Shown: positions 44,251-60,959 of the stretch, piece by piece | Position numbering within the stretch: the first letter of the stretch is position 1 | How the letters are laid out: each line of letters starts with the position of its first letter | Assembly: GCA_024225445.1 (NCBI GenBank) | Contig: JAAEMP010000073.1 | Coordinates: 415-64,414, forward strand | Source of the DNA: Hyphomicrobiales bacterium | GTDB taxonomy: Bacteria; Pseudomonadota; Alphaproteobacteria; Rhizobiales; Rhizobiaceae | DNA length: 64,000 nt | Direction of reading: 5' to 3' | The notes under the pieces: model-generated | What the model was told of the DNA's origin: nothing | What the model saw: the letters and a program-made list of their open reading frames with translations, nothing else | Database searches by the model: none | Position numbers and translations under genes: made by a program

Positions 44251-44282
44251 AACTATATAACCAATAATCTAGTTTTATAGTT
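44251..44282. promoter_or_regulatory. imperfect 11-bp inverted repeat (aactatataac ... gttttatagtt) upstream of arsR; candidate ArsR operator
   Basis: Read directly; 10 of 11 positions pair. Confidence 0.35.
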
Positions 44283-44725: not shown

Positions 44726-44804
44726 ACCACTCTGCCCGCTGCACCCATATCGATGACCAGGTATCTGCCCGGATATACCAGTAGCGAACCAGCCCTTCAG
44801 GCAA

Positions 44805-46214: not shown

Positions 46215-46345
46215 AATATTCCTCTTCTTTTTCCAACCCTCCCATAAAATTTGAACCTTTTCAAAAAAGGTTAGTTAGGGTTTTTTTGTTACAAACGCCG
46301 TTGCACAGTTGGGCTTCTGTGTCATTTTTTGCTGTATTTTTGTCG

Positions 46346-46362
46346 TTGTATACTGTATCCAA
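46346..46362. promoter_or_regulatory. operator site A: TTGTATACTGTATCCAA (17-bp palindrome family)
   Basis: Lies in the divergent gap between ALDH-A and the FAD oxidoreductase. It matches sites B-E. Confidence 0.6.
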
Positions 46363-46512
46363 TAGTTGCGTATTGCAAGCACAAAACCAACCGTCCGGAA
46401 CAATACGGCTAAAACCGCGTAGTTTGGTAAACGCTGTTGCTTAACAACAAAAAAAGTAATGCACATTGAATGTCTGCAAGACGATCAAAAAGAAAACATC
46501 AGGGACAGGAAA

Positions 46513-47805
46513 ATGCCGAAGACGAGACCATATTGGTGGGAGGAATTCAAAACTTACAAAACACAACCCAAACACCTTCCCGAGGAATGCGATGTGGTGG
46601 TGGTTGGCGCCGGATTGACCGGCTGCTCAGCCGCGATAACCCTGGCCAAAACCGGTGCCAAGGTAGTGGTACTGGAAGCCCAGCGCCCGGGTTTTGGAGC
46701 CTCCACGCGCAATGGTGGTATGGTTGGTGGCGGCTACCGCGTACCCTTTGAGGAAATGGCAGAACGCTATGGACCGGGAACTGCTTATCGCCTGTTGACA
46801 GAATCCCACATCGATTCACTGAATTTCGCCAATGCCCGCATCAGGGAGGAGAAAATCAAGTGTGATTATAAAACATATGGCCGCTTTCGAGGAATGTGGA
46901 ACAAGGCGGAATATGACACAACCGCGAAATCGCTGGAACAATTACGCCAACTGATACCGGTGAATATCGACATGGTTCCGCGCGAGCAGCAACGCGATCA
47001 GATCGGTACGGATTTTTACAGTGGCGGCATGCTTTTGCATGACCACGGTGGTTTGCACCCGGCGAAATACCTGAACGGAATGCTGCATGCGGCTAAACGC
47101 GCAGGTGCCAAAATAGTCGGGTACACACCGGTCACCGAGGTCAAACCATCAGGCTCCGGGTTTATTGTAACGACCAGCAAAGGTTCAATCAAGGCCAGCT
47201 CAGTTCTCATGGCCACTAATGGCTATACGACGAGGGATTTTGCTGCGCTCAGACAGCGCGTCATTCCTGTCTCCAGTTTTCTCATCGCCACCAAAAAACT
47301 TTCAAAAAACCTGATTGACGAAATTATGCCAGCCCGTCGCATGGGTGTGGAAACCCGCCACCGCCACTGCTATTTCCGTCTGTCACCAGATTCAAGCAGG
47401 TTCATTATTGGTGGAAGAGCTGCCCTGTCCAATGTCTCTGAACCAAAAGCCACGGCCGTATTGCAGTCGCTTATGAGCGAGATTTTTCCGCAGTTGAAAT
47501 CGGCGAAAATATCCCATTCCTGGACCGGTCAGACCGGTTTCACCTTCTCGTTCATGCCCCATATCGGTCAGTTTGACGGGGTCTGGCATGCACTTGGTTA
47601 TTCGGGAAGCGGCAACGCCATGGCGCCCTATCTCGGGCACAAGGCAGCCCTGCAGATGCTCGGTGATCCAGCAGGAGAAACAGCCTTTACAGAAACAAAG
47701 CTGGAAACCCGGTCATGGTACCGGGGAACGCCATGGTTCCTGCCTTTCGCCCACAGGCTTTATCGCTGGACCGATTTCCGTGAAAATCTTCGCCGTGGAC
47801 GATGA
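46513..47805 (+). CDS. FAD-dependent oxidoreductase (DAO family; gamma-glutamyl-amine oxidase PuuB-like)
   Basis: It has the dinucleotide motif DVVVVGAGLTGCSAA followed by LEA...GFGASTRNGG. I prefer the start at the ATG at 46513. Confidence 0.8.
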   Translation: MPKTRPYWWEEFKTYKTQPKHLPEECDVVVVGAGLTGCSAAITLAKTGAKVVVLEAQRPGFGASTRNGGMVGGGYRVPFEEMAERYGPGTAYRLLTESHIDSLNFANARIREEKIKCDYKTYGRFRGMWNKAEYDTTAKSLEQLRQLIPVNIDMVPREQQRDQIGTDFYSGGMLLHDHGGLHPAKYLNGMLHAAKRAGAKIVGYTPVTEVKPSGSGFIVTTSKGSIKASSVLMATNGYTTRDFAALRQRVIPVSSFLIATKKLSKNLIDEIMPARRMGVETRHRHCYFRLSPDSSRFIIGGRAALSNVSEPKATAVLQSLMSEIFPQLKSAKISHSWTGQTGFTFSFMPHIGQFDGVWHALGYSGSGNAMAPYLGHKAALQMLGDPAGETAFTETKLETRSWYRGTPWFLPFAHRLYRWTDFRENLRRGR

Positions 47806-47942
47806 AAATTTCCGCTCAATTTCATCAGCAGTGAAGTCGCATTTAGAGCTTGATCAACACGGATACTCTAGCACTCCCAGACTGTATCTGAGCTCAGTGG
47901 CAAGTGTTCATAATTTACAATTTTCTTGCAACAGCATTCATT

Positions 47943-47959
47943 TTGTATACGGTATACAA
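47943..47959. promoter_or_regulatory. operator site B: TTGTATACGGTATACAA (perfect palindrome)
   Basis: Lies 209 nt upstream of ALDH-B. Confidence 0.6.
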
Positions 47960-48167
47960 TAGTGTCACCAAACGATACAGGCGATCTGGCCACGTCGATC
48001 CAATCTGATTGCCAAACAGGGAATAAGTGAAATTTCGCATTCTCCAAATACCTTGAACGGACAACCGGATAAGCATCCCAGGTGACAGGAGAATTCCTAC
48101 GGCTGTGGCTGACCATGAACAAAATACAGCCAGATCGGTAACTTCAAAATAGTAAAAGGAGAGTTCC

Positions 48168-49577
48168 ATGTTTCAGCAAATGCTTATTAACGGAAAGCTT
48201 GTCGGAAAAAGGTCACCGAAAAAGACAATTAACGTAGTCAACCCATCCACGCAGAAAGCATTTGCCCAGGTTCCAAAGGGAAAAATCAAACACATCAACA
48301 AGGCCGTAAAGGCAGCAAACAAGGCTTTCCCTGCCTGGGCGGCCACACCGCTGGAAAAGCGTCAGGCTATCGTTGAGAAAATGGCGGACGTTATTTCCGA
48401 TAACGCTGACAAACTCGCACGCCTTTTAACAAGCGAACAAGGCAAGCCAATGCCTGAAGCAATGGGGGAAATGGCCTGGACGGAAGGTTACCTTCGTCAC
48501 TACGCTACTCTTGAAGCCAGAGGGCGGACCATCCAGGATGATGACGACTTCAAAATCGAGGTGCGCCGTGTACCATTGGGTGTGGTCGCAGGTATATGCC
48601 CGTGGAATTTCCCGGTTCTTGTACCATTCTGGAAAATCGGCCCAGCGCTTGTTGCAGGCAATACTATAGTCATTAAACCGGCTCCGACTACCCCTCTGAC
48701 AATCTTGAAAATATTTGAACTATTCAACAATTTTGTGCCCGCAGGCGTTATCAATGTGGTAACCGATGAAAACGATCTGGGTCCTGCTCTGACCAACCAC
48801 CCTGATGTGGCCAAAGTCAGCTTTACCGGTTCTTGTGAAACCGGCAAGAAGATCATGGCATCATCTGCGAGTACTCTTAAACGGGTAACGCTGGAATTGG
48901 GAGGGAACGACCCGGCAATTGTATTGCCAGACGTTGATGTGGCCGCCACGGCCGCACAGATATATGGCGGTGCTTTCCTTAATGCCGGCCAGGTCTGTCT
49001 GGCGGTCAAGCGCGTATATGCCCACAAGGATATTTATGATGAAATGTGCGGCGAACTTGCCACGCTGGCCAACGAAGCAATTGTCGGGGACGGTTTGCAG
49101 CAGGGAACAACAATTGGGCCGGTCCAGAACAAGGCGCAATTCAAGAAGGTCAAGGCCTTTGTCAAAAGTGCAAGAAAGGACGGTAAAATCCTGTGTGGCG
49201 GCATCGTGAAAAACAAGGCCGGATACTTCGTCAACCCCGTCATTGTCCGGGATGTAAAGGATGGCGATGACATCGTTGACAAGGAACAGTTCGGGCCGAT
49301 TTTGCCGGTGATCAAATACTCCAATATCGAAAAGATCGGCAAACAAGCCAATGACACCGATTTCGGTCTGGGTGCCTCTGTCTGGTCGTCAGACACAGCC
49401 AAAGCGACAAAAATTGCTTCACAAATCGAGGCCGGTTCTGTCTGGGTCAACCAACACATCAATATCGGCCCGCACATTCCTATGGCAGGATTCAAGTCTT
49501 CAGGTATTGGTGTGGAGCAATCTGAAGAAGGTCTGGAAGAATACACTCAAATTCAGGTCATGAATATTGCCAAATAG
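48168..49577 (+). CDS. NAD(P)+ aldehyde dehydrogenase (paralog B)
   Basis: 469 aa, the same length and motif order as paralog A (CPWNFP, FTGSCETGK, ELGGNDP, GQVCLAVKR). Confidence 0.9.
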   Translation: MFQQMLINGKLVGKRSPKKTINVVNPSTQKAFAQVPKGKIKHINKAVKAANKAFPAWAATPLEKRQAIVEKMADVISDNADKLARLLTSEQGKPMPEAMGEMAWTEGYLRHYATLEARGRTIQDDDDFKIEVRRVPLGVVAGICPWNFPVLVPFWKIGPALVAGNTIVIKPAPTTPLTILKIFELFNNFVPAGVINVVTDENDLGPALTNHPDVAKVSFTGSCETGKKIMASSASTLKRVTLELGGNDPAIVLPDVDVAATAAQIYGGAFLNAGQVCLAVKRVYAHKDIYDEMCGELATLANEAIVGDGLQQGTTIGPVQNKAQFKKVKAFVKSARKDGKILCGGIVKNKAGYFVNPVIVRDVKDGDDIVDKEQFGPILPVIKYSNIEKIGKQANDTDFGLGASVWSSDTAKATKIASQIEAGSVWVNQHINIGPHIPMAGFKSSGIGVEQSEEGLEEYTQIQVMNIAK

Positions 49578-49606
49578 CTACAATGGCCAACGCAAAACCG
49601 TGAACA

Positions 49607-49650
49607 GGTTTACTGATGAGCATCCCTGCCCGGGATACCCTCAGTAAACC
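49607..49650. terminator. 10-bp inverted repeat (ggtttactga / tcagtaaacc, 24-nt spacer) between convergent genes
   Basis: Read directly. It could act as a bidirectional terminator, but the loop is long and there is no clear T tract. Confidence 0.35.
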
Positions 49651-49665
49651 GGAAGCGCCCCGATT

Positions 49666-50964
49666 CTACAGGTTTCTCAGATAGCGATCCAGTTCGACCT
49701 GGGTTATCTGGTTGGCAAAAAATTCAAGCTCGCGCTCTGCCTGACCAGCTAAAATACCCAGCGTGTCCTCGCCGATTATATTGCCAACAAAATCTGACTG
49801 CTTTGCAAGTTTAATCGCTGTTTGCAAATCAGTCGGTAACAATTCGGCATCGGCATCCTCGTACGCATTGCCGGTCGTTTCCGGTGTCGGCTCAAGTTTT
49901 TGTTCAATCCCGTCAAGACCGGCAGCAATTTCGCAGGCCATTATATTGTAAGGGTTGCAATCCGCCGAGCCGTCACGTTTCTCAACCCGCACCGCACTGT
50001 CCTTACCCTCAATAATACGCAATCCAACGGTTCGATTATCAACTCCCCAACAGGTATTTACCGGGCTAAACGAATATGGCTGGCGACGTCGGTAGGCATT
50101 GGGGGTAGTTGCACCGGCCAGTGACATTTCACACATTCGTTTTTGCAGCCCGGCGACGTAGTTTTTACCGATCGCGGACAGTTTTCCATTATCTGCAAAA
50201 ACATTCTTTCCCCCACTCCAGAGGGAGTGATGCAGGTGAAATCCGTTACCTGATTCCTCTATGAACGGTTTTGCCATGAAAGTGGCGACATAGCCGTGTG
50301 CACCGGCTATTTCCTTGATCAGGCCACGAAAAGCTACAACCCGGTCGGCTGCCCTCAATGCCTCGCCGTAGCGAATATTGACCTCAACCTGACCGGCGGC
50401 ATATTCGGGATTGGATTGCTCAATGGGAATATCAACATCATTGAGATGGCGCCGGATAGGTCCCAATACATGCTCCAGTTCGGCGGAGCGAGCGAGACTG
50501 TAGACTCCGATACCGGTATCGCGTGGTTGCAAGGTTTCCTTGTCAAGCAGATAAAATTCCAGTTCGGCGCCAATCTGTACTTCGTACCCCATTTTGGCAG
50601 CGCGCTCCAGTACTCTGACCAGGCCATTGCGGGGGTCGATGGGAACCGGTTTATGATCCATTCCCTCCACCCGTCCAAAGCAGAATGCCACTCCGTCTTC
50701 CCAAGGAGTTGCATAAGCTGGCCCGTTTGGAAAAATGTGCATGTCGGGATAGCCATTGTCGAAGTTTACATATGGTGTGTCCCACACATCGCAGGTCATA
50801 TCGATTGCAAAGGTTGCAATTGATAAAGCCACTCCGTTTTCACAAACCGTCGGCCAGTGGCTGGCCGGTACCCGCTTGCCGCGCAGAATCCCGTTGGGAT
50901 CTCCTATGCCCAGCGCAACAGTATGAATACCTTCAGGCAAATTTTTATATTCAACACTCATCAA
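49666..50964 (-). CDS. glutamine-synthetase-family gamma-glutamyl-amine (amide) synthetase, GmaS/PuuA-like
   Basis: 432 aa with a GS catalytic-domain pattern (FMAKPF..GNGFHLH.SLW, ..NAYRR). It follows mgsABC-like genes, as gmaS does in N-methylglutamate-pathway clusters. Confidence 0.8.
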   Translation of the reverse strand: MMSVEYKNLPEGIHTVALGIGDPNGILRGKRVPASHWPTVCENGVALSIATFAIDMTCDVWDTPYVNFDNGYPDMHIFPNGPAYATPWEDGVAFCFGRVEGMDHKPVPIDPRNGLVRVLERAAKMGYEVQIGAELEFYLLDKETLQPRDTGIGVYSLARSAELEHVLGPIRRHLNDVDIPIEQSNPEYAAGQVEVNIRYGEALRAADRVVAFRGLIKEIAGAHGYVATFMAKPFIEESGNGFHLHHSLWSGGKNVFADNGKLSAIGKNYVAGLQKRMCEMSLAGATTPNAYRRRQPYSFSPVNTCWGVDNRTVGLRIIEGKDSAVRVEKRDGSADCNPYNIMACEIAAGLDGIEQKLEPTPETTGNAYEDADAELLPTDLQTAIKLAKQSDFVGNIIGEDTLGILAGQAERELEFFANQITQVELDRYLRNL

Positions 50965-51005
50965 GATCCTCCCAAATCAGATTTGCTACAATTTGCAATT
51001 TCACC

Positions 51006-52427
51006 CTACCATGAAAATGGCCGATCAATACCAGCAAGTTTAACCCCAGTAAAGGCAGAGGCTTCTGTAGAAAGGGCTCGAAGGTCTTCAACCTCAAGAT
51101 TGTGCACTGATGACTTCCCGCAGGCCTTTGCCAGAAGAGTAATCTCCATGGTCATAGCAGTTAAATATCTTGCGACCCGCTCAGCTGCCGCAGGCACATC
51201 AATTCGTTCTTCCAGTTCCGGCTCCTGGGTAGCAATGCCCACCGGGCAAAGCCCGGTATGGCAATGATGACACCTGCCCGGTTCCGTTCCCAGGGCTTCA
51301 TAACCATCAAAATATCGCGGCGAGTTACAGCCCAGTGCGATCAGAGAACCGGTTCCCACCATCACCGCATCTGCTCCCAAAGCCAGACATTTGGCTGCAT
51401 CGGTTCCCGAACGGATACCCCCGGCAGCCACCAGTGAAACTTTTCCGGACATACCACATTCATCCAGTGCTTCACGCGCCGCACGAATCGCCGTCATGGT
51501 CGGAATACCGGTATGGTTGAGCAGCAGTTCAGGCGAGGCGCCTGTTCCACCTTCAGCACCATCAACAACAACTACATCAACCCCTGCCTTTGCCGCAATA
51601 GCCACGTCATAGCGTGGCCTTGTGGCTCCCATCTTGAGAAAAATCGGAACCTTGTAATCAGTCGCTTCACGCAGTTCTTCGATCTTCACCTGCATATCAT
51701 CAGCACCAAGAAAATCGGGGTGTCTGACGGTAGACCGCTGATCAACACCGGAAGGCAACGAGCGCATACCGGCAACGCGTTCGGACACTTTCATGCCGAG
51801 CAACAACCCGCCGGTTCCCGGTTTGGCACCCTGTCCAACTACCAGTTCGATGGCATCGGCCATTCGCAAATGAGCCAGATCAAGCATATAGCGGGACGGT
51901 GTCATCTGGTAGACAAGTGTCCTGGAAGCCCGACGCTCGTCTTCCAGCATTCCGCCTTCACCGGTACAGGTCAAGGTCCCAACTTTGGAAGCACCATAAC
52001 CCAGTGCCGCCTTGGCATTTGCCGACAGCGCACCAAATGACATTGAAGCAATATAGATGGGAATATCCAGCTCCAGTGGATTTTCAACCAGCCCGGATCC
52101 CCCGCCGAGAACGGTTTTTGTGTCGCAGCTTTCACGATATCCCTCCAGCGGCAGGCGGGTCATGGTCGCAGGCACGAATGTCAAATCATCAAAACTGGGC
52201 AGGCGATGGTTAAAGCTGTTAAAGCCGCGTATCTGATAACGCCCGAGACGTGAAAGCGCGTGAATTTCCGAAATTGATTCAGGTGTCCAGGATACTGATT
52301 CACCACGCGCGTATGATTTGGGCACTCCTGCCGGGCGATCTTCCACCCCGCCATCCTTCATTGCCACCGCGTCTTCCGAGGGCATTTCAAACGGATATTC
52401 GTATGGTTTCTTCATATCATCAGCCAT
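51006..52427 (-). CDS. glutamate-synthase FMN-domain-like protein (MgsC-like)
   Basis: 473 aa with GEGG, the G.GAKPG.GG motif (VVGQGAKPGTGGLL) and DGAEGGTGASP. Confidence 0.85.
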   Translation of the reverse strand: MADDMKKPYEYPFEMPSEDAVAMKDGGVEDRPAGVPKSYARGESVSWTPESISEIHALSRLGRYQIRGFNSFNHRLPSFDDLTFVPATMTRLPLEGYRESCDTKTVLGGGSGLVENPLELDIPIYIASMSFGALSANAKAALGYGASKVGTLTCTGEGGMLEDERRASRTLVYQMTPSRYMLDLAHLRMADAIELVVGQGAKPGTGGLLLGMKVSERVAGMRSLPSGVDQRSTVRHPDFLGADDMQVKIEELREATDYKVPIFLKMGATRPRYDVAIAAKAGVDVVVVDGAEGGTGASPELLLNHTGIPTMTAIRAAREALDECGMSGKVSLVAAGGIRSGTDAAKCLALGADAVMVGTGSLIALGCNSPRYFDGYEALGTEPGRCHHCHTGLCPVGIATQEPELEERIDVPAAAERVARYLTAMTMEITLLAKACGKSSVHNLEVEDLRALSTEASAFTGVKLAGIDRPFSW

Positions 52428-53104
52428 GCGCTAGCGTCCCTACTTTCAAAATGCCACAAACGTTGGGCGGACACGATCTTCTGCCATTGGTGTGAGTTGT
52501 CACCCAACCCCAATTCATCCAAAAGTTTTTCTACACTGGCAATTTCCTGTGAACTCGGTTCAACCACCTTTGAATCCACACCCAGCGATTCTATCGGGCC
52601 AGCCACCCAGACCTCACCGCCCCACAAGCTGTCGGCGCAGGCTTCGCCTGCCCCCGACAGGGCAATGATCCGCCCGGCATGAGACATGAAACCGGCCATG
52701 TAACCAATCTTGCCTTCAACGACGATATCGCCACCTTTCATAGCCACACCGCAACGCGGTCCGGCATCACCCTTGACATGTATCAGACCGCCTCGCATGG
52801 AAGCGCCAAGTGACATGCCTGCATAACCATTGACAAGAATTTCTCCGCTGGCCATGGCTTCACCGCACGACCAGCCGACATTGCGCTCGACCTCGATATT
52901 GGCGCCGTCATTAAGCCCGCCGCAGTAATAACCAACACTGCCCTCAAAGCGGATATCGGCACCAGGTGGCAGACCAACCCCCAGATTATGCCGTGAACGC
53001 GTATCGCGTACAATAACCTTGTTTCCTTCAGCCAGCGCGGCCTTGATTTCCCTGTTGACTTCGCGAATTGGACGATCCTTGACGGTGACAATAACCTCAC
53101 TCAT
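52412..53104 (-). CDS. GXGXG-motif protein (glutamate synthase alpha C-terminal-domain-like; MgsB-like)
   Basis: 230 aa with repeated G.G.G beta-helix motifs (GSVGYYCGG, GYAGMSLG, GDAGPRCG, GKIGYMAG). Confidence 0.85.
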   Translation of the reverse strand: MSEVIVTVKDRPIREVNREIKAALAEGNKVIVRDTRSRHNLGVGLPPGADIRFEGSVGYYCGGLNDGANIEVERNVGWSCGEAMASGEILVNGYAGMSLGASMRGGLIHVKGDAGPRCGVAMKGGDIVVEGKIGYMAGFMSHAGRIIALSGAGEACADSLWGGEVWVAGPIESLGVDSKVVEPSSQEIASVEKLLDELGLGDNSHQWQKIVSAQRLWHFESRDASAWLMI

Positions 53105-54045
53105 GCCGCTTTCCTCAATGTTCCGATTTCCCAGGTCTTGGTCATGCTCGGGCCATCATAATTATTGACAACCTCCTCACCAAGATAGATCATCCGTACT
53201 GCCTGTTCTTCCGTGGCAACCGCCATTTGCCCATTTTCCTCAATCGCCACCAACGGCTTGATTGCCCAGCGGTCCTTGGCAAAGCCCATGCTATGAATGT
53301 CTGAAATCAGATAAGTAAATACCCCATCTATTTGCGATATCGATTTTTTCAGTGACTGGGCCTGACTTAATCCCTGTGACATCTGATCGGAAATCCACAC
53401 CGCCAACAATTCGCTGTCATTATAGGTCATGAACCTGTAGCCTTTTCGCTCCAACCGTTCCCGCCACGTGTAGTAATCGGTTATCTGACCATTGTGAACA
53501 ATTGCCACATCGGGAAAAGGCCGTGCCCAAAACGGATGGCTGGCAGTTGGCGAGACGCTTGATTCAGTGGCAAGACGCGCGTGACCAAGGCCATGAGTAC
53601 CAATAAAATCACGTATATTGTGCTTGTCAGCAACTTCACTGGCCCCGCCCAAATCCTTGACAATTTCAAGCGAACGGCCCACTGATTGCATCTCCAGGTT
53701 TTCACAAATTGTGTCAGCCTGACGTGCCCAGGCGGCAAAATCATTTGGATCCTTTATCACCATTCGGACAGAAACATGGGGGGTATCAGCATCATCCCAT
53801 GTAGGATCTGAAATGAAATCCGAATTATTCTCAATCAGAATATTTTTGAAATCCTGCAAATCACTCGATAGCCTGTCTCTGTTACTAGCCATGGCGCGAA
53901 CGATATAACCCGTATCCAGCGGTGAACCATAAAGTGCAAATCCGGTTGAATCCGCACCCCGGTGACGCTGTGATTCCATCAACTCCACCAAATCTGCACC
54001 AATTCTACCGGGTGCAGTAAGTATTCGTCCGGCTATCCCGCACAT
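53101..54045 (-). CDS. class-II (Ntn) glutamine amidotransferase-like protein (MgsA-like)
   Basis: Starts MCGIAG (catalytic Cys2) and contains RHRGADSTG. It overlaps the next gene by 4 nt. Confidence 0.85.
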   Translation of the reverse strand: MCGIAGRILTAPGRIGADLVELMESQRHRGADSTGFALYGSPLDTGYIVRAMASNRDRLSSDLQDFKNILIENNSDFISDPTWDDADTPHVSVRMVIKDPNDFAAWARQADTICENLEMQSVGRSLEIVKDLGGASEVADKHNIRDFIGTHGLGHARLATESSVSPTASHPFWARPFPDVAIVHNGQITDYYTWRERLERKGYRFMTYNDSELLAVWISDQMSQGLSQAQSLKKSISQIDGVFTYLISDIHSMGFAKDRWAIKPLVAIEENGQMAVATEEQAVRMIYLGEEVVNNYDGPSMTKTWEIGTLRKAA

Positions 54046-54066
54046 AGAAGCATTTCCTTTTGCATA

Positions 54067-54083
54067 CAGTATACAGTGTACAA
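54067..54083. promoter_or_regulatory. operator site C: CAGTATACAGTGTACAA
   Basis: Lies 22 nt upstream of the mgsA-like start, in the 107-nt gap after livH. An overlapping ATACAGTATACA half-site lies just upstream. Confidence 0.5.
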
Positions 54084-54151
54084 TATTATCCTATTCCCAG
54101 AACTCAAAATACGCAAGGAAAACTTTGGGCAGCTTAATACAATTGTGCCCT

Positions 54152-55039
54152 TCAGCGCATCGGTTCCGGATTGCTGGCGATAATGCCGTTGGGGCGGAAA
54201 ACAAGGAAAATAATCAATAACAGCAACACCGCGGCATCCCTGAACACCACAAGATTATCAGGCAACAAGAACAACAGGGTTGCTTCAAGCGCGCCAAGCA
54301 GAAATCCACCATAAAGCGCACCCTTTGGATTTGCCAACCCCCCGATTATTGCCGCAATAAGAGCCTTGATCATTGGTGTTAGTCCGAGCGCGGGAAATAC
54401 CGCTCCGCGCTGGGAAATCCATAACAGCGCAGCGACACCCGCCAGCGCACCGGACAAAAAGAAAGCCAGCGCAATCACCCGGTTTGCCTGAATTCCCACC
54501 ACCCTGGCAACATCAAAATCAGCTGCTGAAGCCCGCAGTGATATACCCAGTCGCGAGTGGGCAAGAAACAGGCGCAGCAGGATCAGTGAGGCAAATGCCA
54601 CCACCACCGTAAATATCTGGGCGCGCGAAACAAACACATCACCAATGGTGATATAGCCGGAGAGGAATTCCGGGATCGGAATTGGTTTGGAACGCGGGCT
54701 GATGCCAACCTGAAAAATCACATGCAGTGCCCCGGATATTGCAAAAGAAGTAATCAGCAACGTCATCGGACTGCGCCCGCGCAACGGTCGAAAGGCTATG
54801 CGTTCCATGGCAACAGCGCACAATCCGGCAAAAATAATGGCCAGCAGCACCGCCAGCCAGAAGGGCGTATGCCAACCGATCATGAAAAACAACGCATAGC
54901 CAAATAATGTCATAAGGTCGCCATGGGCAAAATTCAGAAATCCCAGCTGCCCGAACACAACAACCAGCCCCAGCGCCAGCAGGGCATAAATGGCTCCAAG
55001 ATTTAGCACAGCAACCAGATACTGAATGAACTCAGCCAT
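54152..55039 (-). CDS. branched-chain-amino-acid-type ABC permease (LivH-like)
   Basis: Polytopic. I prefer the start MAEFIQYLVAVLNLGAIYALLALG at 55039, which overlaps the upstream stop by 8 nt. Confidence 0.85.
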   Translation of the reverse strand: MAEFIQYLVAVLNLGAIYALLALGLVVVFGQLGFLNFAHGDLMTLFGYALFFMIGWHTPFWLAVLLAIIFAGLCAVAMERIAFRPLRGRSPMTLLITSFAISGALHVIFQVGISPRSKPIPIPEFLSGYITIGDVFVSRAQIFTVVVAFASLILLRLFLAHSRLGISLRASAADFDVARVVGIQANRVIALAFFLSGALAGVAALLWISQRGAVFPALGLTPMIKALIAAIIGGLANPKGALYGGFLLGALEATLLFLLPDNLVVFRDAAVLLLLIIFLVFRPNGIIASNPEPMR

Positions 55040-55757
55040 TGCCACTCTCCCGACTGCCGGTTCCAAGATAACTGTCATGGACAAACTGGTCATCAGCCAG
55101 TTCATCGGCAGGACCTGAACGCACAATCATTCCCAGTTCCATCACATAGGCACGGTCCGCAATCGCCAGACTCTTTTTGACATTCTGCTCGACCAGCAGA
55201 ATAGTTACCCCTGACGCGCGCAACTCAGCGATGATCTCAAAAACTTTTGTAACAATTTTCGGTGCCAGACCCAGCGAGGGTTCATCCAGAATAAGGCAGG
55301 TCGGATTGACCATCAGTGCTCGCGCAATTGCCAGCATCTGCTGTTCTCCGCCGGAAAGCGTGCCCGCATCCTGCTCACGGCGCTCTCTCAGCACCGGAAA
55401 CTGTTCCAGCACAGAACCGAGGCGCCTGTCGAAGTCACTTCGTGAAAGCGTACAGCCTCCGGCGCGCAGATTGTCAATGACTGAAAGTGATTTGAACACC
55501 CGGCGTCCCTCAGGTGAAAACGACAATCCCATCCCTGCCCGGTTCTCGACCGGAACACCAGCCAGCGAATTGCCTTTCAGAACAATGTTGCCGCTGACAA
55601 TTGGCACCAGTCCCATGATGGCGTTAAGTGTGGTGGTCTTGCCCGCCCCGTTTGCGCCGATAATTGTCACCAGCTCTCCACTGTCCACTTCAAAGGAAAT
55701 GCCCTTAACCGCCGCCACCGGACCGTATGATACGCATAAATTGGAAACTACCAGCAT
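55032..55757 (-). CDS. ABC ATP-binding protein (LivF-like)
   Basis: It has GANGAGKTT, LSGGEQQML and LILDEPS. Confidence 0.9.
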   Translation of the reverse strand: MLVVSNLCVSYGPVAAVKGISFEVDSGELVTIIGANGAGKTTTLNAIMGLVPIVSGNIVLKGNSLAGVPVENRAGMGLSFSPEGRRVFKSLSVIDNLRAGGCTLSRSDFDRRLGSVLEQFPVLRERREQDAGTLSGGEQQMLAIARALMVNPTCLILDEPSLGLAPKIVTKVFEIIAELRASGVTILLVEQNVKKSLAIADRAYVMELGMIVRSGPADELADDQFVHDSYLGTGSRESGNG

Positions 55758-55834
55758 GATTGGTTACTTCAAGGAATTTGTAATAAGGGTACCACCGGCA
55801 AATATGCCGGTGGCAAGTTTGGCAAGCCAGTCAC

Positions 55835-57007
55835 TTATTTGGCTTTCGGTATTTCAGACGGATCAAGCTTGATTGAGGTAATATATTTGCCCTCTCCATT
55901 TTCAATTTTCATAATGTGAACCGGAAGGTTCGGAGCTTTGCCGACACCCTTGAAGGTTGCCTTACCGATCTCGGTATCAACATTTTCAAGCTGGCCAAAG
56001 GCATCACGCAATGCGGCAGGTTCGATTGTACCTGCCTTTTCTGCAGCTGCTGCAACCATCCGCATGGCGGAATAACCGACCATCGCAGGATAAAAGCTGT
56101 CAGCATTACCAAATTTTGTTTCATAAGCCTTGACAAAATTTGCGGCACTTTCACTGGTGCTGGGTGCTGCCATTGTCACATAGTGAACACCATCGACCAC
56201 TTTGCCCAACCCTTTAACGGAAGGCTGGTCAAGCACATCAGGACCAAGATAGGTTGACGTGATACCTGCGGCGCGCAACTGGTTGATAAAGATGGGAAAA
56301 TCATTGTCAAATGGCATCGCCATAATGACATCGGGTTGCTGGGGCAGCTTCTTGATATCTGCAACCACTTTGGTGAATTCCTGCTGGTCGTAGGTAAAAG
56401 TCGATTGGCCAACCACTTTACCTCCATTTTTTTCAAAGGAATCCTTGAAATAGAGCGGCAGATATTCTGTATACGGATCAAAATCTGACGTCACGATATA
56501 GGCAGTTTTTGCCTTCAGGCCGGTGGTGGCAAATTTGCCGTAAACCGCACCCATGTGTGCATCCGACATCATCACCAGATAACTGCCACCGCCCGCACGT
56601 GCGGGAATTGTCGGCTGGGATGCAATGGTGTGCATGATCAGGAGATTTTCCTTTTTGACCATGGTTCCCGCAGCAATCGCACTGGGTGAAATTGCACTTG
56701 AAACAAACATGTTCATTTTCTGTGACTTCAACAATTCTGCAATGGCGATTGCTGTTTTTTGCGGGTCAGACGCATCATCGCGCTCCACCAGTGTAATCGG
56801 ATATTTTCCATTGAGTCCGCCATTTTTGTTTGCTTGCTCAATATACATGGTAACGCCCTGCATAAACGGCGCATCATAAGCTGCCATGAAGCCTGTGCGA
56901 GCACTTACGGCACCAATGACAAAGTCTTCCGCCTGAGCAGGTGCATACCCAGCCCCAGCCAGTGTTGAAGCCGCTACAACAGCGGCAAAAATAGTTTTGT
57001 TAATCAT
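55835..57007 (-). CDS. periplasmic binding protein, type-1 (LivJ/K-like; amino acid/amide/amine)
   Basis: The start MINKTIFAAVVAAS...AQA is a signal peptide, preceded by a GGGAGAAG RBS. Operon context supports the call. Confidence 0.8.
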   Translation of the reverse strand: MINKTIFAAVVAASTLAGAGYAPAQAEDFVIGAVSARTGFMAAYDAPFMQGVTMYIEQANKNGGLNGKYPITLVERDDASDPQKTAIAIAELLKSQKMNMFVSSAISPSAIAAGTMVKKENLLIMHTIASQPTIPARAGGGSYLVMMSDAHMGAVYGKFATTGLKAKTAYIVTSDFDPYTEYLPLYFKDSFEKNGGKVVGQSTFTYDQQEFTKVVADIKKLPQQPDVIMAMPFDNDFPIFINQLRAAGITSTYLGPDVLDQPSVKGLGKVVDGVHYVTMAAPSTSESAANFVKAYETKFGNADSFYPAMVGYSAMRMVAAAAEKAGTIEPAALRDAFGQLENVDTEIGKATFKGVGKAPNLPVHIMKIENGEGKYITSIKLDPSEIPKAK

Positions 57008-57036
57008 ATTACTTCTCCCTTTTGTTAATTTTAGTT

Positions 57037-58959
57037 TCATTCGCCAAGGTAATGTTCCTCATCCCCCTCTTCTCCCACATATGCCTCAATCACATCGGCA
57101 TTGGTACTGATCTCGGCTGGCTGCCCATCCGCAATCAGTTCACCTTTGTTGAGTACATAAATGCGATTGCATAATTGCATAACCATTTTCAGATCATGCT
57201 CTACCAGCAATACGCCAACGCCAAAATCACGAACAATTCGGCTGAGCAAGGTTTTGAGTTCCTCTGTCTCCGATGAATTCATACCTGCCGCGGGTTCATC
57301 CAGCAGCAGAAAGTCCGGTTCCAGCGCAAGCGCGCGGGCAATCTCAAGCCAGCGCTGGTCTCCATAGGCAAGATTGCTTGCCAGAACTGCTGCCTTGTCC
57401 TCAAGATTGAGTAAAGCCAACCATTCGCGCGCTCTTTTCTGCGCCCTGGCTCGGCTAAGTGCGGGTGACTTCACGGTAACCGCGCAAATTACATTTTCCA
57501 GCACTGTCAATGAAGTGAACAGGCGAATGTTCTGATAAGTGCGGCCAAGTCCATTTCGCGCCAGGCGCACCGCACTCCATGATGTAGCCTCCTGACCGCC
57601 CACCAAAATGGTTCCGGAAGAAGCAAACAGGTTACCGGTCAAGACATTGATAAACGTCGTCTTGCCCGCGCCATTTGGCCCGATCAATCCGACAATTTCC
57701 CCGGCATCGACCCTGAGACTGACATCTGAAAGTGCGCTTAATCCGCCAAAGGTCTTTGACAGACCTGAAGTTTCAAGACTACGCCTGATGTCAACTTTGT
57801 AACCGGGTGTCGCAAGCTGCCCGGATTGAACCGCACTGCTCCCACCTCCCTTAAACAATAAAACCGCCAGTTCGCGGTAACCCAGCAATCCTTCCGGGCG
57901 CAGATATAAAACGATGAGGATCAGGATGGAAAATGAAATTGCAGTCAGGCCAAATACAAGGGGGAACTCAAACCCGAATATCGTTTCAGTTCCGGCAAAA
58001 CTACCTAGATATTCCTCCGTATTGCGAAACACTTTCTCGGCAAAGGTAATCACTATAGCACCGATTGCACACCCGCTGATTGAGCGATAACCACCGAGAA
58101 TAATCATCACCACCAGGGCAAAGGTCTTTTCAAGATAAAACCCGTTGGGAGAAATCACACCAACCACATGGGCATACAAGCCGCCGGCAAGTCCGACCAA
58201 CCCGGCACTGGCCGTCCAGAACAAAAAGATATTTATCTGTGGTTCAATGCCGATGGAACGCGATGCCTGCTCCTCGTCCCGCGTAGCCTCCAGATGTCTG
58301 GCAGCCTTTGTACTTTTTAGAAAAAACGCAGCGCCAAGCGCCACTGCAAGGGAGGAGACAATAACTGGCCAGGTGGCGTATTCTGTCGGGATTGCATACA
58401 AAGACTGTTTGCCATTGGTAAGCACTTTTGCTCCGACAAAAACCAGATAAGCAATGATAATCAGACCGAAACTGGCAATCACCGCCGAAGTATCGCGCAG
58501 GCGCATGATAACCAGACCGGAAATGGCACCAATCACCAGGCAAACCAATATAGCAACCGGCAATGCCAAGGGTAACGACCATTCTGCTTCGCGTACAAAA
58601 GCAGGCATGTCAGCCAGCAAGAACGATTTTAGCGCGGGCGGCAAGGTAAACCAGACCGTTACATAGGCGCCAATTCCAAAGAAAGACACATGTCCCAGTG
58701 ACAAAATTCCGCTGGTCCCCGAGAACAAACCAAGACCGACGGCGGCGATAATGTTGATGCAGCCAAGCATCAACAACTCGCGTCCGGCAATGTTTGTAAG
58801 CAAAGAGAAAGCGACAATGGCGCAAATTAGCGGCAAAATAATTGCACCAGAAATCAGGCACTCACGCGAGCGCTGGTCAAAAAAGGCTCTCGACGCACTA
58901 ATGTCGTCACGACCGGCGACGGCCTGGTCCTGCACCAGAGTTTCTTGCTGCTCGCTCAT
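57037..58959 (-). CDS. fused ABC permease (LivM-like) + ATP-binding (LivG-like) protein
   Basis: About 640 aa. The N-terminal approx. 350 aa are polytopic. The C-terminus has GPNGAGKTT, L.YGDQRWLEIARAL and LLLDEPAAG. Confidence 0.85.
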   Translation of the reverse strand: MSEQQETLVQDQAVAGRDDISASRAFFDQRSRECLISGAIILPLICAIVAFSLLTNIAGRELLMLGCINIIAAVGLGLFSGTSGILSLGHVSFFGIGAYVTVWFTLPPALKSFLLADMPAFVREAEWSLPLALPVAILVCLVIGAISGLVIMRLRDTSAVIASFGLIIIAYLVFVGAKVLTNGKQSLYAIPTEYATWPVIVSSLAVALGAAFFLKSTKAARHLEATRDEEQASRSIGIEPQINIFLFWTASAGLVGLAGGLYAHVVGVISPNGFYLEKTFALVVMIILGGYRSISGCAIGAIVITFAEKVFRNTEEYLGSFAGTETIFGFEFPLVFGLTAISFSILILIVLYLRPEGLLGYRELAVLLFKGGGSSAVQSGQLATPGYKVDIRRSLETSGLSKTFGGLSALSDVSLRVDAGEIVGLIGPNGAGKTTFINVLTGNLFASSGTILVGGQEATSWSAVRLARNGLGRTYQNIRLFTSLTVLENVICAVTVKSPALSRARAQKRAREWLALLNLEDKAAVLASNLAYGDQRWLEIARALALEPDFLLLDEPAAGMNSSETEELKTLLSRIVRDFGVGVLLVEHDLKMVMQLCNRIYVLNKGELIADGQPAEISTNADVIEAYVGEEGDEEHYLGE

Positions 58960-59104
58960 CGCAATACAATGACAAAGGCCTGCCCGCAAACATCCAGGCA
59001 GGACATTTGACCAGACTTCGAGGTGATATTATCCAACTCTAGGTTTTCTGCTCCAATGTCATTTTATATCCTCCCATATATCTTTATTCTGCGTTTTATC
59101 AATT

Positions 59105-59121
59105 TTGTATACTGTATTCAA
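59105..59121. promoter_or_regulatory. operator site D: TTGTATACTGTATTCAA
   Basis: Lies 146 nt upstream of the livMG-fusion start. It differs from site A at one position. Confidence 0.6.
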
Positions 59122-59242
59122 TATATCATAGCATTGTTTCCCGGCATCGGCAATTTCAATTATTGCACTCGCACAATAAATCATCGTACCGCCACTGGGC
59201 GGGTCGCATCCAATGAAATTCGCCTGGCCAATTTCCAAAGCA

Positions 59243-59356
59243 ACTTTCGACCACATTGAAGCATTTGATGGGATAAATCGGTTCACTCGGCCAGGCGCGG
59301 TGCGCAGCGCGATCTGGTTGATCGATCAAACGATTCAATGCAACCATGAAAAGTCC
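59243..59356 (+). repeat. copy R2 of the intergenic repeat family; the most complete copy, with head and inverted tail able to pair
   Basis: The head is actttcgaccacattgaagcatttgatgg and the tail is gatcaaacgattcaatgcaaccatgaaaagtcc. The reverse complement of the tail (ggacttttcatggttgcattgaatcgtttgat) nearly equals the head of R1. Confidence 0.6.
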
Positions 59357-59442
59357 AGGATTTCCCGGACATCAATGTGCTGATGCAGAAATATACGCAA
59401 TATCGCGTTAACTACAGATTCAAATAGTTTGGATTTGCCGGC

Positions 59443-59853
59443 TTAGGTCAGTGAAATCTTGCCGTTTCGCGAATGAATAATGGCATCAACTTCAATCTCT
59501 ACCATCATTCCAGGCGTCGTCAGACCGGCCTGGACACCGGTTAAAACCGGCTCAATTCCCTTGAATATTTCGCCATGTCGGCGGATAAATCCACCTGCAT
59601 CACGCATATCGGAAACAAATGCCCTGGTTCGAACAATGTGGCGCATTTTTGCATCCACAGTCCCAAGAACATCTTCTATCTTATTGAAAATATAAACAGT
59701 TTGCTCATATATATCATAAGGAGCATATACCTTGCCATTTTGTTGCATGGATGTTAATCCAGCGACAAATACAAACGGTCCTACTCTTTTTACGCGGGAA
59801 TACGAAGCGGCCTTCTCAAACCGTCCGCTACCTGATACTGACATTAAAACCAT
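59443..59853 (-). CDS. RidA/YjgF/Rut-family (reactive enamine/imine deaminase-like) protein
   Basis: It has the C-terminal pattern R..F......D........F......P..T.V....L......VEI. The start is at 59853 or 59844; the longer ORF-track start would overlap the gntR promoter. Confidence 0.75.
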   Translation of the reverse strand: MVLMSVSGSGRFEKAASYSRVKRVGPFVFVAGLTSMQQNGKVYAPYDIYEQTVYIFNKIEDVLGTVDAKMRHIVRTRAFVSDMRDAGGFIRRHGEIFKGIEPVLTGVQAGLTTPGMMVEIEVDAIIHSRNGKISLT

Positions 59854-59868
59854 GTATCCTGTATACAG
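59852..59868. promoter_or_regulatory. operator site E: ATGTATCCTGTATACAG
   Basis: Lies in the approx. 40-nt divergent gap between ridA and gntR and overlaps the ridA start region. This is consistent with autoregulation. Confidence 0.5.
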
Positions 59869-59893
59869 TATTAAGCAGGTGAAGCAAATCGCA

Positions 59894-60571
59894 ATGTTCA
59901 AAAAAGCACCTCAGGCAAGACCAAGACTGGCCGCTGATGTTTACGATCAGCTTTTGTCTGCCGTCGTCAACGGACAGATAAAACCAGGTGAACGTCTGAT
60001 ACAGGAAAAAATTGCCGCGCAAATCAATATCAGCCGCACCCCCGTGCGAGAAGCGCTGTTACGTCTGGAGCAGGAAGGTGTGCTTGAACAAACCGGGCGC
60101 AGGGGTTTTACCATTCGTGATATTACCGACCAGGAAATCCGTGCGCTTTATGGTGCTCGTGAGGCGGTTGAAGGTTATGCGGCCTATGTGATAGCTACCG
60201 ACAGGGGCGATCAGCAACTTGCTACTATTGAACAGGCTGTCTTAGCAGAACAGCAACTCTTTGAGCGCGATGTTGAAAAGGAATTCACGATCAATCGTAA
60301 CATTCATCGCACTATTGTTGAGCAAAGCGGTAATTCAGTTTTGCTGGGAATGTTTGACAGTTTGTGGAGTCGTGGTGTTTCATTGTGGTTGTTTTCTGCA
60401 ACCCGGAACGATCAGACCCCGTCGAAGCCAGATGTGCATTCAAAACTGTTGCAAAAACTGAAATCCGGCACCCCTGAAGAAGCCCAGAAAGAGATGATCG
60501 ACCACATCCGCGATGGATTGGACATGCATTTGGAGAACAAGAAAACGCATGCAAGTAATCCGGATTCGTGA
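59894..60571 (+). CDS. GntR-family regulator, FadR/FCD subfamily
   Basis: I prefer the start at MFKKAP. The wHTH is VYDQLLSAVVNGQIKPGERLIQEKIAAQINISRTPVREALLRLEQEGVL. The C-terminus is all-helical and FCD-like, with H..I....GN. Confidence 0.85.
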   Translation: MFKKAPQARPRLAADVYDQLLSAVVNGQIKPGERLIQEKIAAQINISRTPVREALLRLEQEGVLEQTGRRGFTIRDITDQEIRALYGAREAVEGYAAYVIATDRGDQQLATIEQAVLAEQQLFERDVEKEFTINRNIHRTIVEQSGNSVLLGMFDSLWSRGVSLWLFSATRNDQTPSKPDVHSKLLQKLKSGTPEEAQKEMIDHIRDGLDMHLENKKTHASNPDS

Positions 60572-60683
60572 TTTGCCGAGACCCGGATTCATTACTGCTA
60601 AAGATAATTTTGGATGTTTTTAGGCCTCGAAAATAGCAGATGAATGCTGACAGGGAACACAAGGCTGGTGGATATCAGCTACC

Positions 60684-60833
60684 TATAGCAGAACACCTTT
60701 ATTTTGATTCAGTTCCGAATTTTTTTTGCTCAGGGCTATTCGGGCTTACGCCCGGCCTCCGCGAGGGCGGCGCACCGGCGCCGGTCGCTATTCGCTCCTG
60801 ATTGCATGACCATTTCAAAGGTGTTCTGCTATA
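60684..60833. repeat. 150-nt element bounded by perfect 17-bp inverted repeats (tatagcagaacaccttt / aaaggtgttctgctata) enclosing a GC-rich core with three short hairpins; MITE-like or structured RNA
   Basis: Read directly. The core hairpins are cgggc-ttac-gcccg, cctc-cgc-gagg and ggcgc-accg-gcgcc. It lies between the convergent 3' ends of gntR and the 60960..61415 gene. Confidence 0.55.
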
Positions 60834-60959
60834 CATAGTGTGGTACACACTGCACACAATATACTACTGATATTTTTGCATAAAAATTGTCAAATGATTC
60901 AATGTGGCCGAAAGCTGCTCCAGATGTTCATTGTTGTACAAAACCCATGAAATTTCAAC

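Follow-up and report, generated by a model that had tools for sequence, protein, structure and literature searches.

Within a 64,000-nucleotide stretch of DNA from a Hyphomicrobiales bacterium of the family Rhizobiaceae (GenBank assembly GCA_024225445.1, contig JAAEMP010000073.1, positions 415 to 64,414), we identified a likely local regulon that spans a 16-kb gene cluster for apparent amine utilisation. In this stretch, called the window below, five short tandem arrays of the palindromic hexamer GTATAC lie in the regulatory gaps of the cluster. Very probably, these arrays are operators of a GntR-type regulator of the FadR/FCD subfamily that is encoded within the cluster (59894–60571) and that represses it. 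We favour this protein as the binder because the arrays and its gene co-occur across related loci, and because of the character of its recognition helix.

Tandem GTATAC arrays in the window and in related loci

The five sites are as follows; the genes named here are listed with their coordinates further below.

46346–46362, two-hexamer array TTGTATACTGTATCCAA, in the divergent gap between the genes for aldehyde dehydrogenase A (ALDH-A) and a DAO-family oxidoreductase (site A)
47943–47959, perfect array of two hexamers, TTGTATACGGTATACAA, located 208 nt before the start codon of a second aldehyde dehydrogenase, ALDH-B (site B)
54060–54083, array of three hexamers, TTGTACACTGTATACTGTATGCAA on the minus strand, 14 nt before the mgsA-like ATG (site C)
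59105–59121, two-hexamer array TTGTATACTGTATTCAA, upstream of the ABC importer operon (site D)
59852–59868, array of two hexamers, ATGTATCCTGTATACAG, that touches the RidA ATG within the 40 bp between ridA and gntR (site E)

A first-pass annotation of this stretch had described the sites as a 17-bp palindrome, TTGTATAC-N-GTATACAA, and direct search verified the position and sequence of all five. The annotation had not noticed the motif elsewhere in the window, and an exhaustive search of both strands with TTGTATACNGTATACAA, allowing up to three mismatches, bears this out. The search returned six matches where 0.11 would be expected, a number that none of 100 dinucleotide shuffles of the window reached. 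Every match falls within the five regulatory gaps, and none was found outside them at this threshold. The sixth match (54060–54076, TTGCATACAGTATACAG, two mismatches) covers part of site C but is offset from it by 7 bp, and it is a better fit than the register originally chosen for that site (three mismatches).

Since GTATAC equals its own reverse complement, the 17-bp palindrome resolves into two such hexamers separated by a single base and hence repeating every 7 bp. The predicted operator is thus a tandem of 6-bp palindromes at a 7-bp phase, present in two or three copies, and not simply a 17-bp palindrome; the sites of the earlier description stand, and its repeating unit is refined. When an array is defined as at least two GTATAC hexamers with no more than one mismatch each at a 7-bp period, the window contains exactly five (46348–46360, 47945–47957, 54062–54081, 59107–59119 and 59854–59866). 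Markov-simulated windows held 0.42 runs of any quality, and in none of 100 was there an array of the required quality. Six of the eight GTATAC hexamers in the whole window lie inside the sites, and the hexamer is rarer in the window than expected (8 versus approximately 15).

The arrays take the consensus forms T-GTATAC-n-GTATAC-A and T-GnATAC-T-GTATAC-A-GTATnC-A. Site C, composed of the hexamers GCATAC-A-GTATAC-A-GTGTAC, is located where it had been placed, but its distance of 22 nt from the mgsA-like ATG shrinks to 14 nt as the site extends to 54060. Likewise, site E does lie in the ridA/gntR gap, although this gap is just 40 bp long and the site abuts or overlaps the RidA start codon (ATG 59853–59851). 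A degenerate third hexamer, GTATTA, follows site E and ends at 59873.

Sixty related loci (1.03 Mb, numbered with the prefix L) were gathered from a one-genome-per-species collection, using the mgsA-like protein as the sole bait and including 10-kb flanks, and the proteins of the window were placed on them by tblastn. The loci derive from alpha- and gammaproteobacteria, mostly marine metagenome-assembled genomes (MAGs) together with isolates of Sulfitobacter and Phaeobacter. Their mgsA-like proteins are 58–85% identical to the bait, and GC content ranges from 40 to 72%. The closest relative, L001, is an uncultured Rhizobiaceae MAG with 69–95% protein identity over the mapped genes and the same gene order as the window apart from ALDH-B. 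In clade 1 (L001–L008, L026, L034 and others) the order is that of the window: gntR divergent from ridA, the ABC operon, the mgsABC-like genes followed by a glutamine-synthetase-like (GS-like) gene, and the DAO-family gene divergent from ALDH-A. In clade 2, which comprises mostly Rhodobacteraceae and Paracoccaceae with some Hyphomicrobiales and gammaproteobacteria, gntR is divergent from mgsABC, and the GS-like gene is often detached and divergently paired with a DAO-family gene of about 380 codons.

We found 93 arrays in the 60 loci, of which 50 have two hexamers and 43 have three. Counted together with the window, there are 98 arrays at period 7 versus zero to one at periods 6 and 8–12. The arrays occupy the GntR–RidA and DAO–ALDH-A gaps, the region upstream of the ABC operon (whichever of its genes comes first) and the region upstream of mgsA, where in most GntR-encoding loci they are typically 15–33 nt before the ATG. 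A detached GS-like gene has an array of its own, located in the DAO–GS gap. The arrays therefore move with the genes under rearrangement, being present in GntR–RidA, GntR–mgsA and DAO–GS gaps and in front of differing ABC gene orders.

Sites A, C, D and E have positional orthologues. That of site A (TTGnATACAGTATACAA) is in the same gap in L001, L002, L003, L006 and L034, and that of site E (CTGTATACAGGATACAT-G) abuts the RidA ATG in L001–L006, L008 and L034. Site D is the best-conserved block of an otherwise unalignable RidA–ABC gap (L001, L005, L008 and L026). An ALDH-B gene at the position of site B is found only in the window; in L020, an orthologue of ALDH-B belongs to an AMP-ligase/ALDH-B/DAO operon with an array in front. 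In gap alignments (mean identity 37% for RidA–ABC and 43% for DAO–ALDH-A) the invariant columns are mostly those of the array and the −35 box, and in the RidA–ABC gap the ribosome-binding site (RBS) is invariant too. The positional orthologues, and the arrays that follow rearranged genes, support the earlier proposal that the motif would tie these units into one co-regulated set.

Whether a locus has arrays depends on whether it has the regulator gene. Both occur in 48 loci and neither in nine; no locus has the GntR gene without an array, and three have an array without the gene (Fisher p = 1.5e-8 when these three are taken as counter-examples). In each of the three the contig is the limit: one is a 5.6-kb contig, one is cut inside the ABC operon and one ends just past mgsA. 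L018, counted as negative, is ambiguous, with a weak two-hexamer match and no GntR gene within reach.

Six loci (L007, L009, L016, L033, L037 and L048) carry mgsABC–GS clusters whose mgsA-like proteins are 62–80% identical to that of the window, without a GntR gene and without an array. Because neither is present, a different regulator must, judging from gene content, control the same enzymes there.

In the reverse direction, metagenome contigs were scanned for the three-hexamer pattern GNATACTGTATACAGTATAC alone, which is present in at least 120 stretches. Among the 120 matches listed (L061–L180), 34 come from low-GC contigs in which the 7-mer GTATAC[A/T] is repeated in long, satellite-like stretches, and 86 are isolated arrays. 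Twenty-five of these 86 lie 12–184 nt upstream of a gene for a GntR-type winged helix-turn-helix (wHTH) protein that points away from the array. Five of the listed contigs have an mgsA-like gene beside the array, and in four of the five the orthologous GntR gene is present. The other GntR genes beside arrays are mostly paralogues of lower similarity whose surroundings are unrelated (L064, L074, L089, L139 and L157 are examples). GntR-type genes therefore recur beside the motif even where the target genes differ. The three-hexamer array is not specific to this regulon, and the scan suggests that many GntR paralogues may share the same tandem-array grammar.

The GntR regulator as probable repressor

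The regulator gene is divergent from ridA and occupies the following position.

59894–60571, plus strand, GntR regulator of the FadR/FCD subfamily, 225 aa, the proposed repressor, autoregulated via site E

Pfam recognizes a GntR domain (PF00392) at residues 13–74 (E = 6.2e-17, 61.4 bits against a cut-off of 27) and a C-terminal, all-helical FCD domain (PF07729) at residues 85–206 (E = 2.4e-17, 64 bits against a cut-off of 24.3). The closest solved structures in a PDB sequence search are the FCD proteins TM0439 and McbR, with Atu1419 and NanR farther away. Exact look-ups of this protein and of ALDH-B gave no recorded entry. Across 49 orthologues the DNA-binding domain is near-invariant (RLA..VY.Q...QE..A....SRTPVREAL.R.EQ.G), even where overall identity to the window protein falls to 36–46%, a pattern expected when DNA specificity is conserved. 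The recognition helix of the window protein, ISRTPVREALLRLEQEG, contains the motif S-R-T-x-x-R, which is kept in the 49 orthologues. Together with the co-occurrence in all 48 GntR-encoding loci and the metagenome scan, this near-invariant wHTH supports the suggestion, already made in the first-pass annotation, that the adjacent FCD-type GntR protein is the probable binder of the motif.

The array unit also agrees with what is known of this subfamily. FadR-type operators follow the rule NyGT-Nx-ACNy, A/T-rich and with x = 2–3 (PMC4494728), and the unit (T)GT-AT-AC(A) fits this rule with x = 2. FadR-subfamily regulators with an SRTPVREALLRLE helix have predicted sites TTGTA-TACAA (PMC4494728, supplement). 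This RegPrecise-based compendium lists single TGTATACA sites and, in the text covered, no GTATACnGTATAC tandem (PMC4494728).

Promoters could be assigned to several of the arrays as consensus-level predictions.

46329–46378, both strands, predicted back-to-back promoters, TTGCTG-16-TACTGT (plus, DAO) and TTGCAA-15-TACAGT (minus, ALDH-A)
47926–47953, plus strand, predicted ALDH-B promoter TTGCAA-16-TACGGT, from sequence reading; the −10 box is the centre of palindrome B
54088–54116, minus strand, predicted mgsA-operon promoter TTGCGT-17-TAGGAT, from sequence reading; site C begins 4 nt after the −10 box
59125–59153, minus strand, predicted ABC promoter TTGCCG-17-(TG)cTATGAT, from a consensus scan; site D begins 3 nt after the −10 box

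Several of these assignments recur in relatives. In the ABC promoter, ATTGCCG and TGnTA are conserved in L001, L005 and L008, and ATTGCCG also in L026. The layout of the mgsA promoter, CTTGnG-17-TAnnnn followed by the array, is present in L001–L008, L026 and L034. At site A, the centre of the array would serve as the −10 box on both strands; CTTGCAA-16-TACAGT is invariant in L001, L002, L006 and L034, and the spacer in the window is 15 nt. The ALDH-B promoter is not conserved elsewhere, because ALDH-B is at that position only in the window. The mgsA promoter of clade 2, cTTGCg-17-TACAGT, recurs across the loci of this clade, and its −10 box is formed where hexamers 2 and 3 meet; the ALDH-A promoter is built alike. 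In the window and the other clade-1 loci, the −10 box of the mgsA and ABC promoters is separate from the array, which starts 3–13 nt later and therefore covers the predicted transcription start. Since the arrays overlap either the −10/spacer region or position +1 of conserved promoters, we infer repression of the units and autoregulation of gntR.

The ridA/gntR gap and the ABC leader have further features. The ridA and gntR start codons are 40 bp apart (59851–59896), so each promoter must lie within the coding region of the other gene. The top candidate for the ridA −35 box, TTGCGA (59894–59889), overlaps the gntR ATG, and the predicted ridA transcript would have next to no leader if translation did not begin at the second ATG (59844). 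On the minus strand at 59075, between site D and the start of the ABC permease gene, a strong RBS (GGGAGGA) is followed by an ATG that opens a seven-codon reading frame, MTLEQKT* (59062–59039). The RBS and ATG are conserved in relatives and the peptide is not (MPLKLVFR* in L001, MTVGGRR* in L005); this mini-ORF may be a leader open reading frame (ORF) or a device for translational coupling to the TTG-initiated permease gene. No Rfam family matched positions 44000–61000 at E ≤ 0.1, so no riboswitch or small RNA explains the gaps.

The nearest structural precedent is Atu1419 of Agrobacterium fabrum, a VanR-type FCD/GntR repressor (PDB 6z74 and others; PMC7797058). In its crystal structure the S-R-T-x-x-R helix contacts the palindrome ATGTATACAT; the Arg reads G, and replacing this G abolishes binding (PMC7797058). 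Atu1419 is among the PDB matches of the window protein (E = 5e-10), with a similarity that is low and confined to the N-terminal half. The two systems share the GntR wHTH and FCD domains, the S-R-T-x-x-R helix, the GTATAC operator core, sites that overlap the −10 box or lie between the −35 and −10 boxes, and the organization as an autoregulated repressor of a local catabolic cluster. However, Atu1419 binds single 10-bp palindromes 109–190 bp apart as a tetramer that loops the DNA, whereas here two or three units are fused at 7 bp; also, its pathway is that of hydroxycinnamates rather than amines.

Another precedent is E. coli NanR of the FadR subfamily, whose operator (GGTATA)3 is bound by three dimers side by side (PMC8012715). 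As in our arrays, three closely spaced hexamers share GTATA, and the operator is located at the RNA-polymerase site or beyond it; NanR is released by a carboxylate ligand. The NanR repeats are direct and non-palindromic, in contrast to the window hexamers, each of which is palindromic and which are spaced at exactly 7 bp. The PDB match between NanR and the window protein is marginal (E = 9e-4). No N-terminal extension of the NanR type (about 32 residues) is present in the window protein, where the wHTH starts at residue 13, or in the orthologue alignment.

By analogy with the Atu1419–DNA complex, a single dimer most likely occupies each (T)GTATAC(A) unit, and its S-R-T-x-x-R Arg would read the G at the end of either half-site. 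Each site would accordingly take up two or three adjacent dimers, rotated from one to the next by about 240 degrees, in loose resemblance to the three NanR dimers on (GGTATA)3. Positioned on the spacer and −10 box (sites A and B) or directly after the −10 box over the transcription start (sites C and D), bound GntR would exclude RNA polymerase from seven transcription units, namely ALDH-A, the DAO oxidoreductase, ALDH-B, the mgsABC-like and GS-like operon, the LIV-type ABC importer, RidA and gntR itself. One dimer per hexamer appears to be the most economical stoichiometry, since the unit equals the Atu1419 dimer site and about half of the arrays have three units. A single 17-bp FadR-like dimer site is less likely, given that every hexamer is a palindrome by itself and that 43 of the 93 arrays comprise three of them.

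Release of the repressor would follow when the FCD domain binds a metabolite of the pathway. Because characterized FCD ligands are carboxylates, a carboxylate-bearing intermediate (a gamma-glutamyl-alkylamide, an N-alkylglutamate or the acid product) would be a likelier inducer than the free amine. Other ligands in the FCD/GntR family are lactate, glycolate, galactonate, pyruvate and acyl-CoA. The NanR ligand, the sialic acid Neu5Ac, is itself a carboxylate (PMC8012715).

The DNA sequence of the arrays has one more precedent, and this belongs to an unrelated protein. In Geobacter sulfurreducens, the HgtR operator is a footprinted dyad, TTGTATACAGTATAC, at +11 to +23 of gltA, and a GntR-family protein also shifted an HgtR-regulated promoter (PMC2817479). 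This operator, essentially identical to ours, mediates repression at several promoters, among them a gntR promoter. HgtR differs in being a 62-aa protein without GntR or FCD domains, and its regulon is central metabolism (tricarboxylic acid cycle, ATP synthase and NADH dehydrogenase). It is therefore conceivable, but very unlikely, that our arrays are true operators of another protein, such as a small repressor resembling HgtR or a regulator whose gene lies outside the cluster in the same genome, and that gntR is merely one of the targets. Consistent with such a binder, the 62-aa HgtR footprints TTGTATACAGTATACTAA and has a gntR gene among its targets (PMC2817479), and of the 86 isolated metagenome arrays among the listed matches, 59 have no adjacent GntR gene. 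However, HgtR is described as a Geobacter protein (PMC2817479), and no conserved small ORF occurs in the gaps of the cluster, where the RidA–ABC gap aligns just at promoter, array and RBS. Mapping placed none of the window's other regulators on the related loci, whereas GntR is encoded in all 48 assessable array-bearing ones, and the GntR recognition helix is the helix structurally shown to read GTATAC. As cognate factors, the AraC (61667–62608) and ArsR (43917–44237) genes of the window were rejected, neither being mapped in related loci; by tblastn, the aldo-keto reductase gene of the window was likewise mapped in none. We consider it unlikely that GntR binds the arrays but acts as an activator or dual regulator at some or all of them. 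The distance of 208 nt between site B and its start codon, and the position of site E in a 40-bp gap with promoters inside the neighbouring coding regions, would leave room for such a role, as would the weaker promoter assignments described below. On the other side are the positions of the arrays, on the −10/spacer or 3–13 nt after the −10 box, which are typical of steric repression, and the characterized relatives Atu1419 and NanR, both of them repressors released by ligand. It is scarcely credible that the motif is no operator at all but a promoter element, a repetitive extragenic palindrome (REP)-like or terminator hairpin, or a by-product of a GTATAC restriction site. The palindrome centre TACnGT does fit TAnnnT at 15–17 nt from TTGCnn boxes, and the hexamer is scarce in the window; yet a −10 box leaves unexplained two or three full palindromic hexamers at a strict 7-bp phase, as well as arrays downstream of a separate −10 box (sites C and D and the clade-1 loci). 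The hairpin, terminator and REP readings were rejected on account of weak predicted folds (−1.4 to −4.9 kcal/mol, z-scores +0.3 to −1.8), and the sites lie upstream of genes. The absence of an Rfam match and the dependence of the arrays on the GntR gene also speak against these readings.

Several points weigh against our preferred reading of the arrays as operators of the local GntR protein. Identity with the HgtR dyad TTGTATACAGTATAC means that sequence alone cannot name the binding protein. Most of the isolated metagenome arrays among the listed matches lack a GntR neighbour, although many of their contigs are short or non-bacterial-looking. The −35 box at site C fits the consensus at three of six positions, the minus-strand spacer at site A is 15 nt and some other promoter matches are weak. 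The 7-bp offset causes adjacent 10-bp dimer sites to overlap by 3 bp, and simultaneous occupancy is thus not guaranteed. In the position matrix, the terminal G and C of the hexamers are conserved at 96–100% and the outer halves of the outer hexamers are least constrained, but these values are inflated by the choice of arrays for similarity to GTATAC; the frequency of the motif is known for mgsA-centred loci with 10-kb flanks only. Finally, 746 GntR homologues were found at E ≤ 1e-20, some of them annotated from SAR324, and those listed have generic names and no specific functional name.

Gene content and a possible amine pathway

The genes that the candidate operators would control are listed here; Pfam and NCBIfam scans upheld all the gene calls of the first-pass annotation.

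44805–46214, minus strand, aldehyde dehydrogenase ALDH-A (Pfam Aldedh, 5.2e-144)
46459–47805, plus strand, DAO-family FAD-dependent amine/amino-acid oxidoreductase, 448 aa (Pfam DAO, 7.2e-61)
48168–49577, plus strand, NAD(P)-dependent aldehyde dehydrogenase ALDH-B (Pfam Aldedh, 4.3e-155)
49666–54045, minus strand, mgsABC-like and GS-like operon (Pfam/NCBIfam), made up of the next four genes
53101–54045, minus strand, class-II GATase, mgsA-like (Pfam GATase_6/7)
52412–53104, minus strand, GXGXG protein (Pfam)
51006–52427, minus strand, glutamate-synthase FMN domain (Pfam Glu_synthase)
49666–50964, minus strand, glutamine-synthetase-like ligase (Pfam Gln-synt_C)
54152–58989, minus strand, LIV-type ABC importer operon (Pfam BPD_transp_2, ABC_tran and Peripla_BP_6)
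59443–59853, minus strand, RidA family (Pfam Ribonuc_L-PSP, 3.4e-20), divergent from gntR

The importer operon comprises a fused permease-ATPase (650 aa), a substrate-binding protein (55835–57040), an ATPase and a permease, and is syntenic in L001–L008, L026 and L034. The GntR–RidA pairing is kept in clade-1 loci. Orthologues of ALDH-A, 75–90% identical, adjoin the DAO gene in L001, L002, L003, L006, L008 and L034.

ALDH-B differs in several respects. It is 46% identical to ALDH-A and 74–80% identical to copies in Rhodobacteraceae clusters, L001 and the other closest relatives with conserved synteny lack it, and the leader that follows site B is unusually long (208 nt, 47960–48167). The long leader, the low identity to ALDH-A, the absence from syntenic relatives and the Rhodobacteraceae-like sequence together suggest that ALDH-B was acquired as a separate module with its own operator.

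As a whole, the regulon looks like a system for the uptake of a short primary amine and its gamma-glutamylation-dependent oxidation to an aldehyde and then an acid. The amine would enter through the LIV-type system and be gamma-glutamylated by the GS-like ligase at the expense of ATP. The three-part GATase/GXGXG/FMN enzyme would convert the product, the DAO-type flavoprotein would oxidize it while RidA handles imines, and ALDH-A and ALDH-B would oxidize the aldehyde. The amine itself is left unassigned because the enzyme matches all score under the NCBIfam equivalog cut-offs. This applies to every match in the operon at 49666–54045; the GS-like protein, for example, reaches 206.8 bits against 650 for gamma-glutamylputrescine synthetase (NF045547). 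The top match of the DAO-type protein is L-pipecolate oxidase (171.8 bits against 600), and the two aldehyde dehydrogenases reach 258–303 bits against 850 for PuuC.

The E. coli Puu pathway (PuuA/B/C/D with PuuR) is a gamma-glutamylation route for amines under a local repressor. The window differs from it in GS-like and aldehyde dehydrogenase scores that are far below the Puu equivalog cut-offs. Pfam and NCBIfam scans found neither a PuuR-type regulator nor a class-I GATase in the cluster region, and no PuuD/IpuF-type hydrolase and no P450 in the window.

The domain architecture also fits gmaS plus mgsABC of the N-methylglutamate pathway, again below equivalog-level scores. The genes are thus gmaS- and mgsABC-like, as the first-pass annotation had it, but the canonical methylamine pathway is not present: mgdABCD (the four-subunit N-methylglutamate dehydrogenase) is absent from 44–61 kb of the window, where a single 448-aa DAO-family protein would have that role. 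The canonical operon of Ruegeria pomeroyi (gmaS-mgsABC with mgdABCD) is activated by the AraC-type TmaR, and the GntR protein TmoR controls only tmm (PMC13390433). Compared with the pathway described there, the window shares the GS-like ligase with a GATase/GXGXG/FMN set, the occurrence in marine alpha- and gammaproteobacteria and a GntR-family regulator, here a probable repressor, in amine catabolism. In contrast, it has a DAO-type oxidoreductase, two aldehyde dehydrogenases, RidA and a LIV-type importer instead of mgdABCD, and the order is mgsABC then GS rather than gmaS-mgsABC. A known TmoR/TmaR system was rejected on these differences in gene set and order and on the lack of mgdABCD.

Resemblance to Puu and to two other systems lies in the combination of a GS-like gamma-glutamyl-amine synthetase, an FAD-dependent or other oxidizing step, an aldehyde dehydrogenase, a transporter and a divergent repressor. 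The two others are the Ipu cluster for isopropylamine of Pseudomonas and Arthrobacter and the GlnA4/EpuRI cluster for ethanolamine of Streptomyces (PMC6529630). Some relatives of the window add acyl-CoA synthetases (L019 and L020), and clade-2 relatives carry a class-I GATase hydrolase and a short-chain dehydrogenase/reductase (L053), as in the Streptomyces and Ipu clusters. By analogy, these additions point to a C2–C4 amine or amino alcohol, the aldehyde of which would end up as an acid or an acyl-CoA.

Microcompartment-bearing relatives and significance

In two clade-2 loci with the same layout (L053:15879–20393 and L056), an array precedes an operon in which a GS-like gene is followed by EutN/CcmL and BMC-H microcompartment shell genes. 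The same type of operon is found in L181:10805–16353, L182 and L183, which are Red Sea MAGs that also have a CsoS1D-like BMC-T gene and an Ldh/Mdh-like gene. In these microcompartment operons the shell genes are followed by an aldehyde dehydrogenase gene with only a partial Aldedh match. The GntR proteins of L181–L183 fall in cluster P0089 (90% identity), which has 449 member sequences. Microcompartment shell genes are not present in the window, and our literature search found no description of a microcompartment tied to a GS-like/mgsABC-like amine cluster.

The principle of an autoregulated GT..AC operator is textbook knowledge; the present example is conserved unusually well among marine bacteria. 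What is new is one more probable regulon of the familiar FadR/FCD-type local repressors, and the literature search found no description of the regulon or of the tandem motif in this context. A joint reading, in which both a new operator grammar and an undescribed amine pathway are involved, is tentative. The grammar may consist of GTATAC dimer sites fused at a 7-bp phase, so that two or three dimers spiral around the DNA and bind cooperatively without a NanR-like arm. The pathway may be a gamma-glutamylation or N-alkylglutamate-type route for short primary amines that is encapsulated by microcompartments in abundant marine relatives.

Two features are less ordinary: the strict phasing of the tandem operator and the relatives that bear microcompartments. 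The arrays provide a testable regulatory map for a 16-kb amine-utilisation cluster that has no characterized member and is widespread in marine alpha- and gammaproteobacteria. The substrate and the inducer can be sought in cultured carriers, namely Sulfitobacter sp. JB4-11 (CP166251.2), Phaeobacter marinintestinus UB-M7, S. sediminilitoris JBTF-M27 and S. sediminis MJW-29, and the operator is usable to find further regulon members in any genome. Its conservation is a sequence-level argument that the GS-like, mgsABC-like, DAO, aldehyde dehydrogenase, RidA and transporter genes would act jointly.

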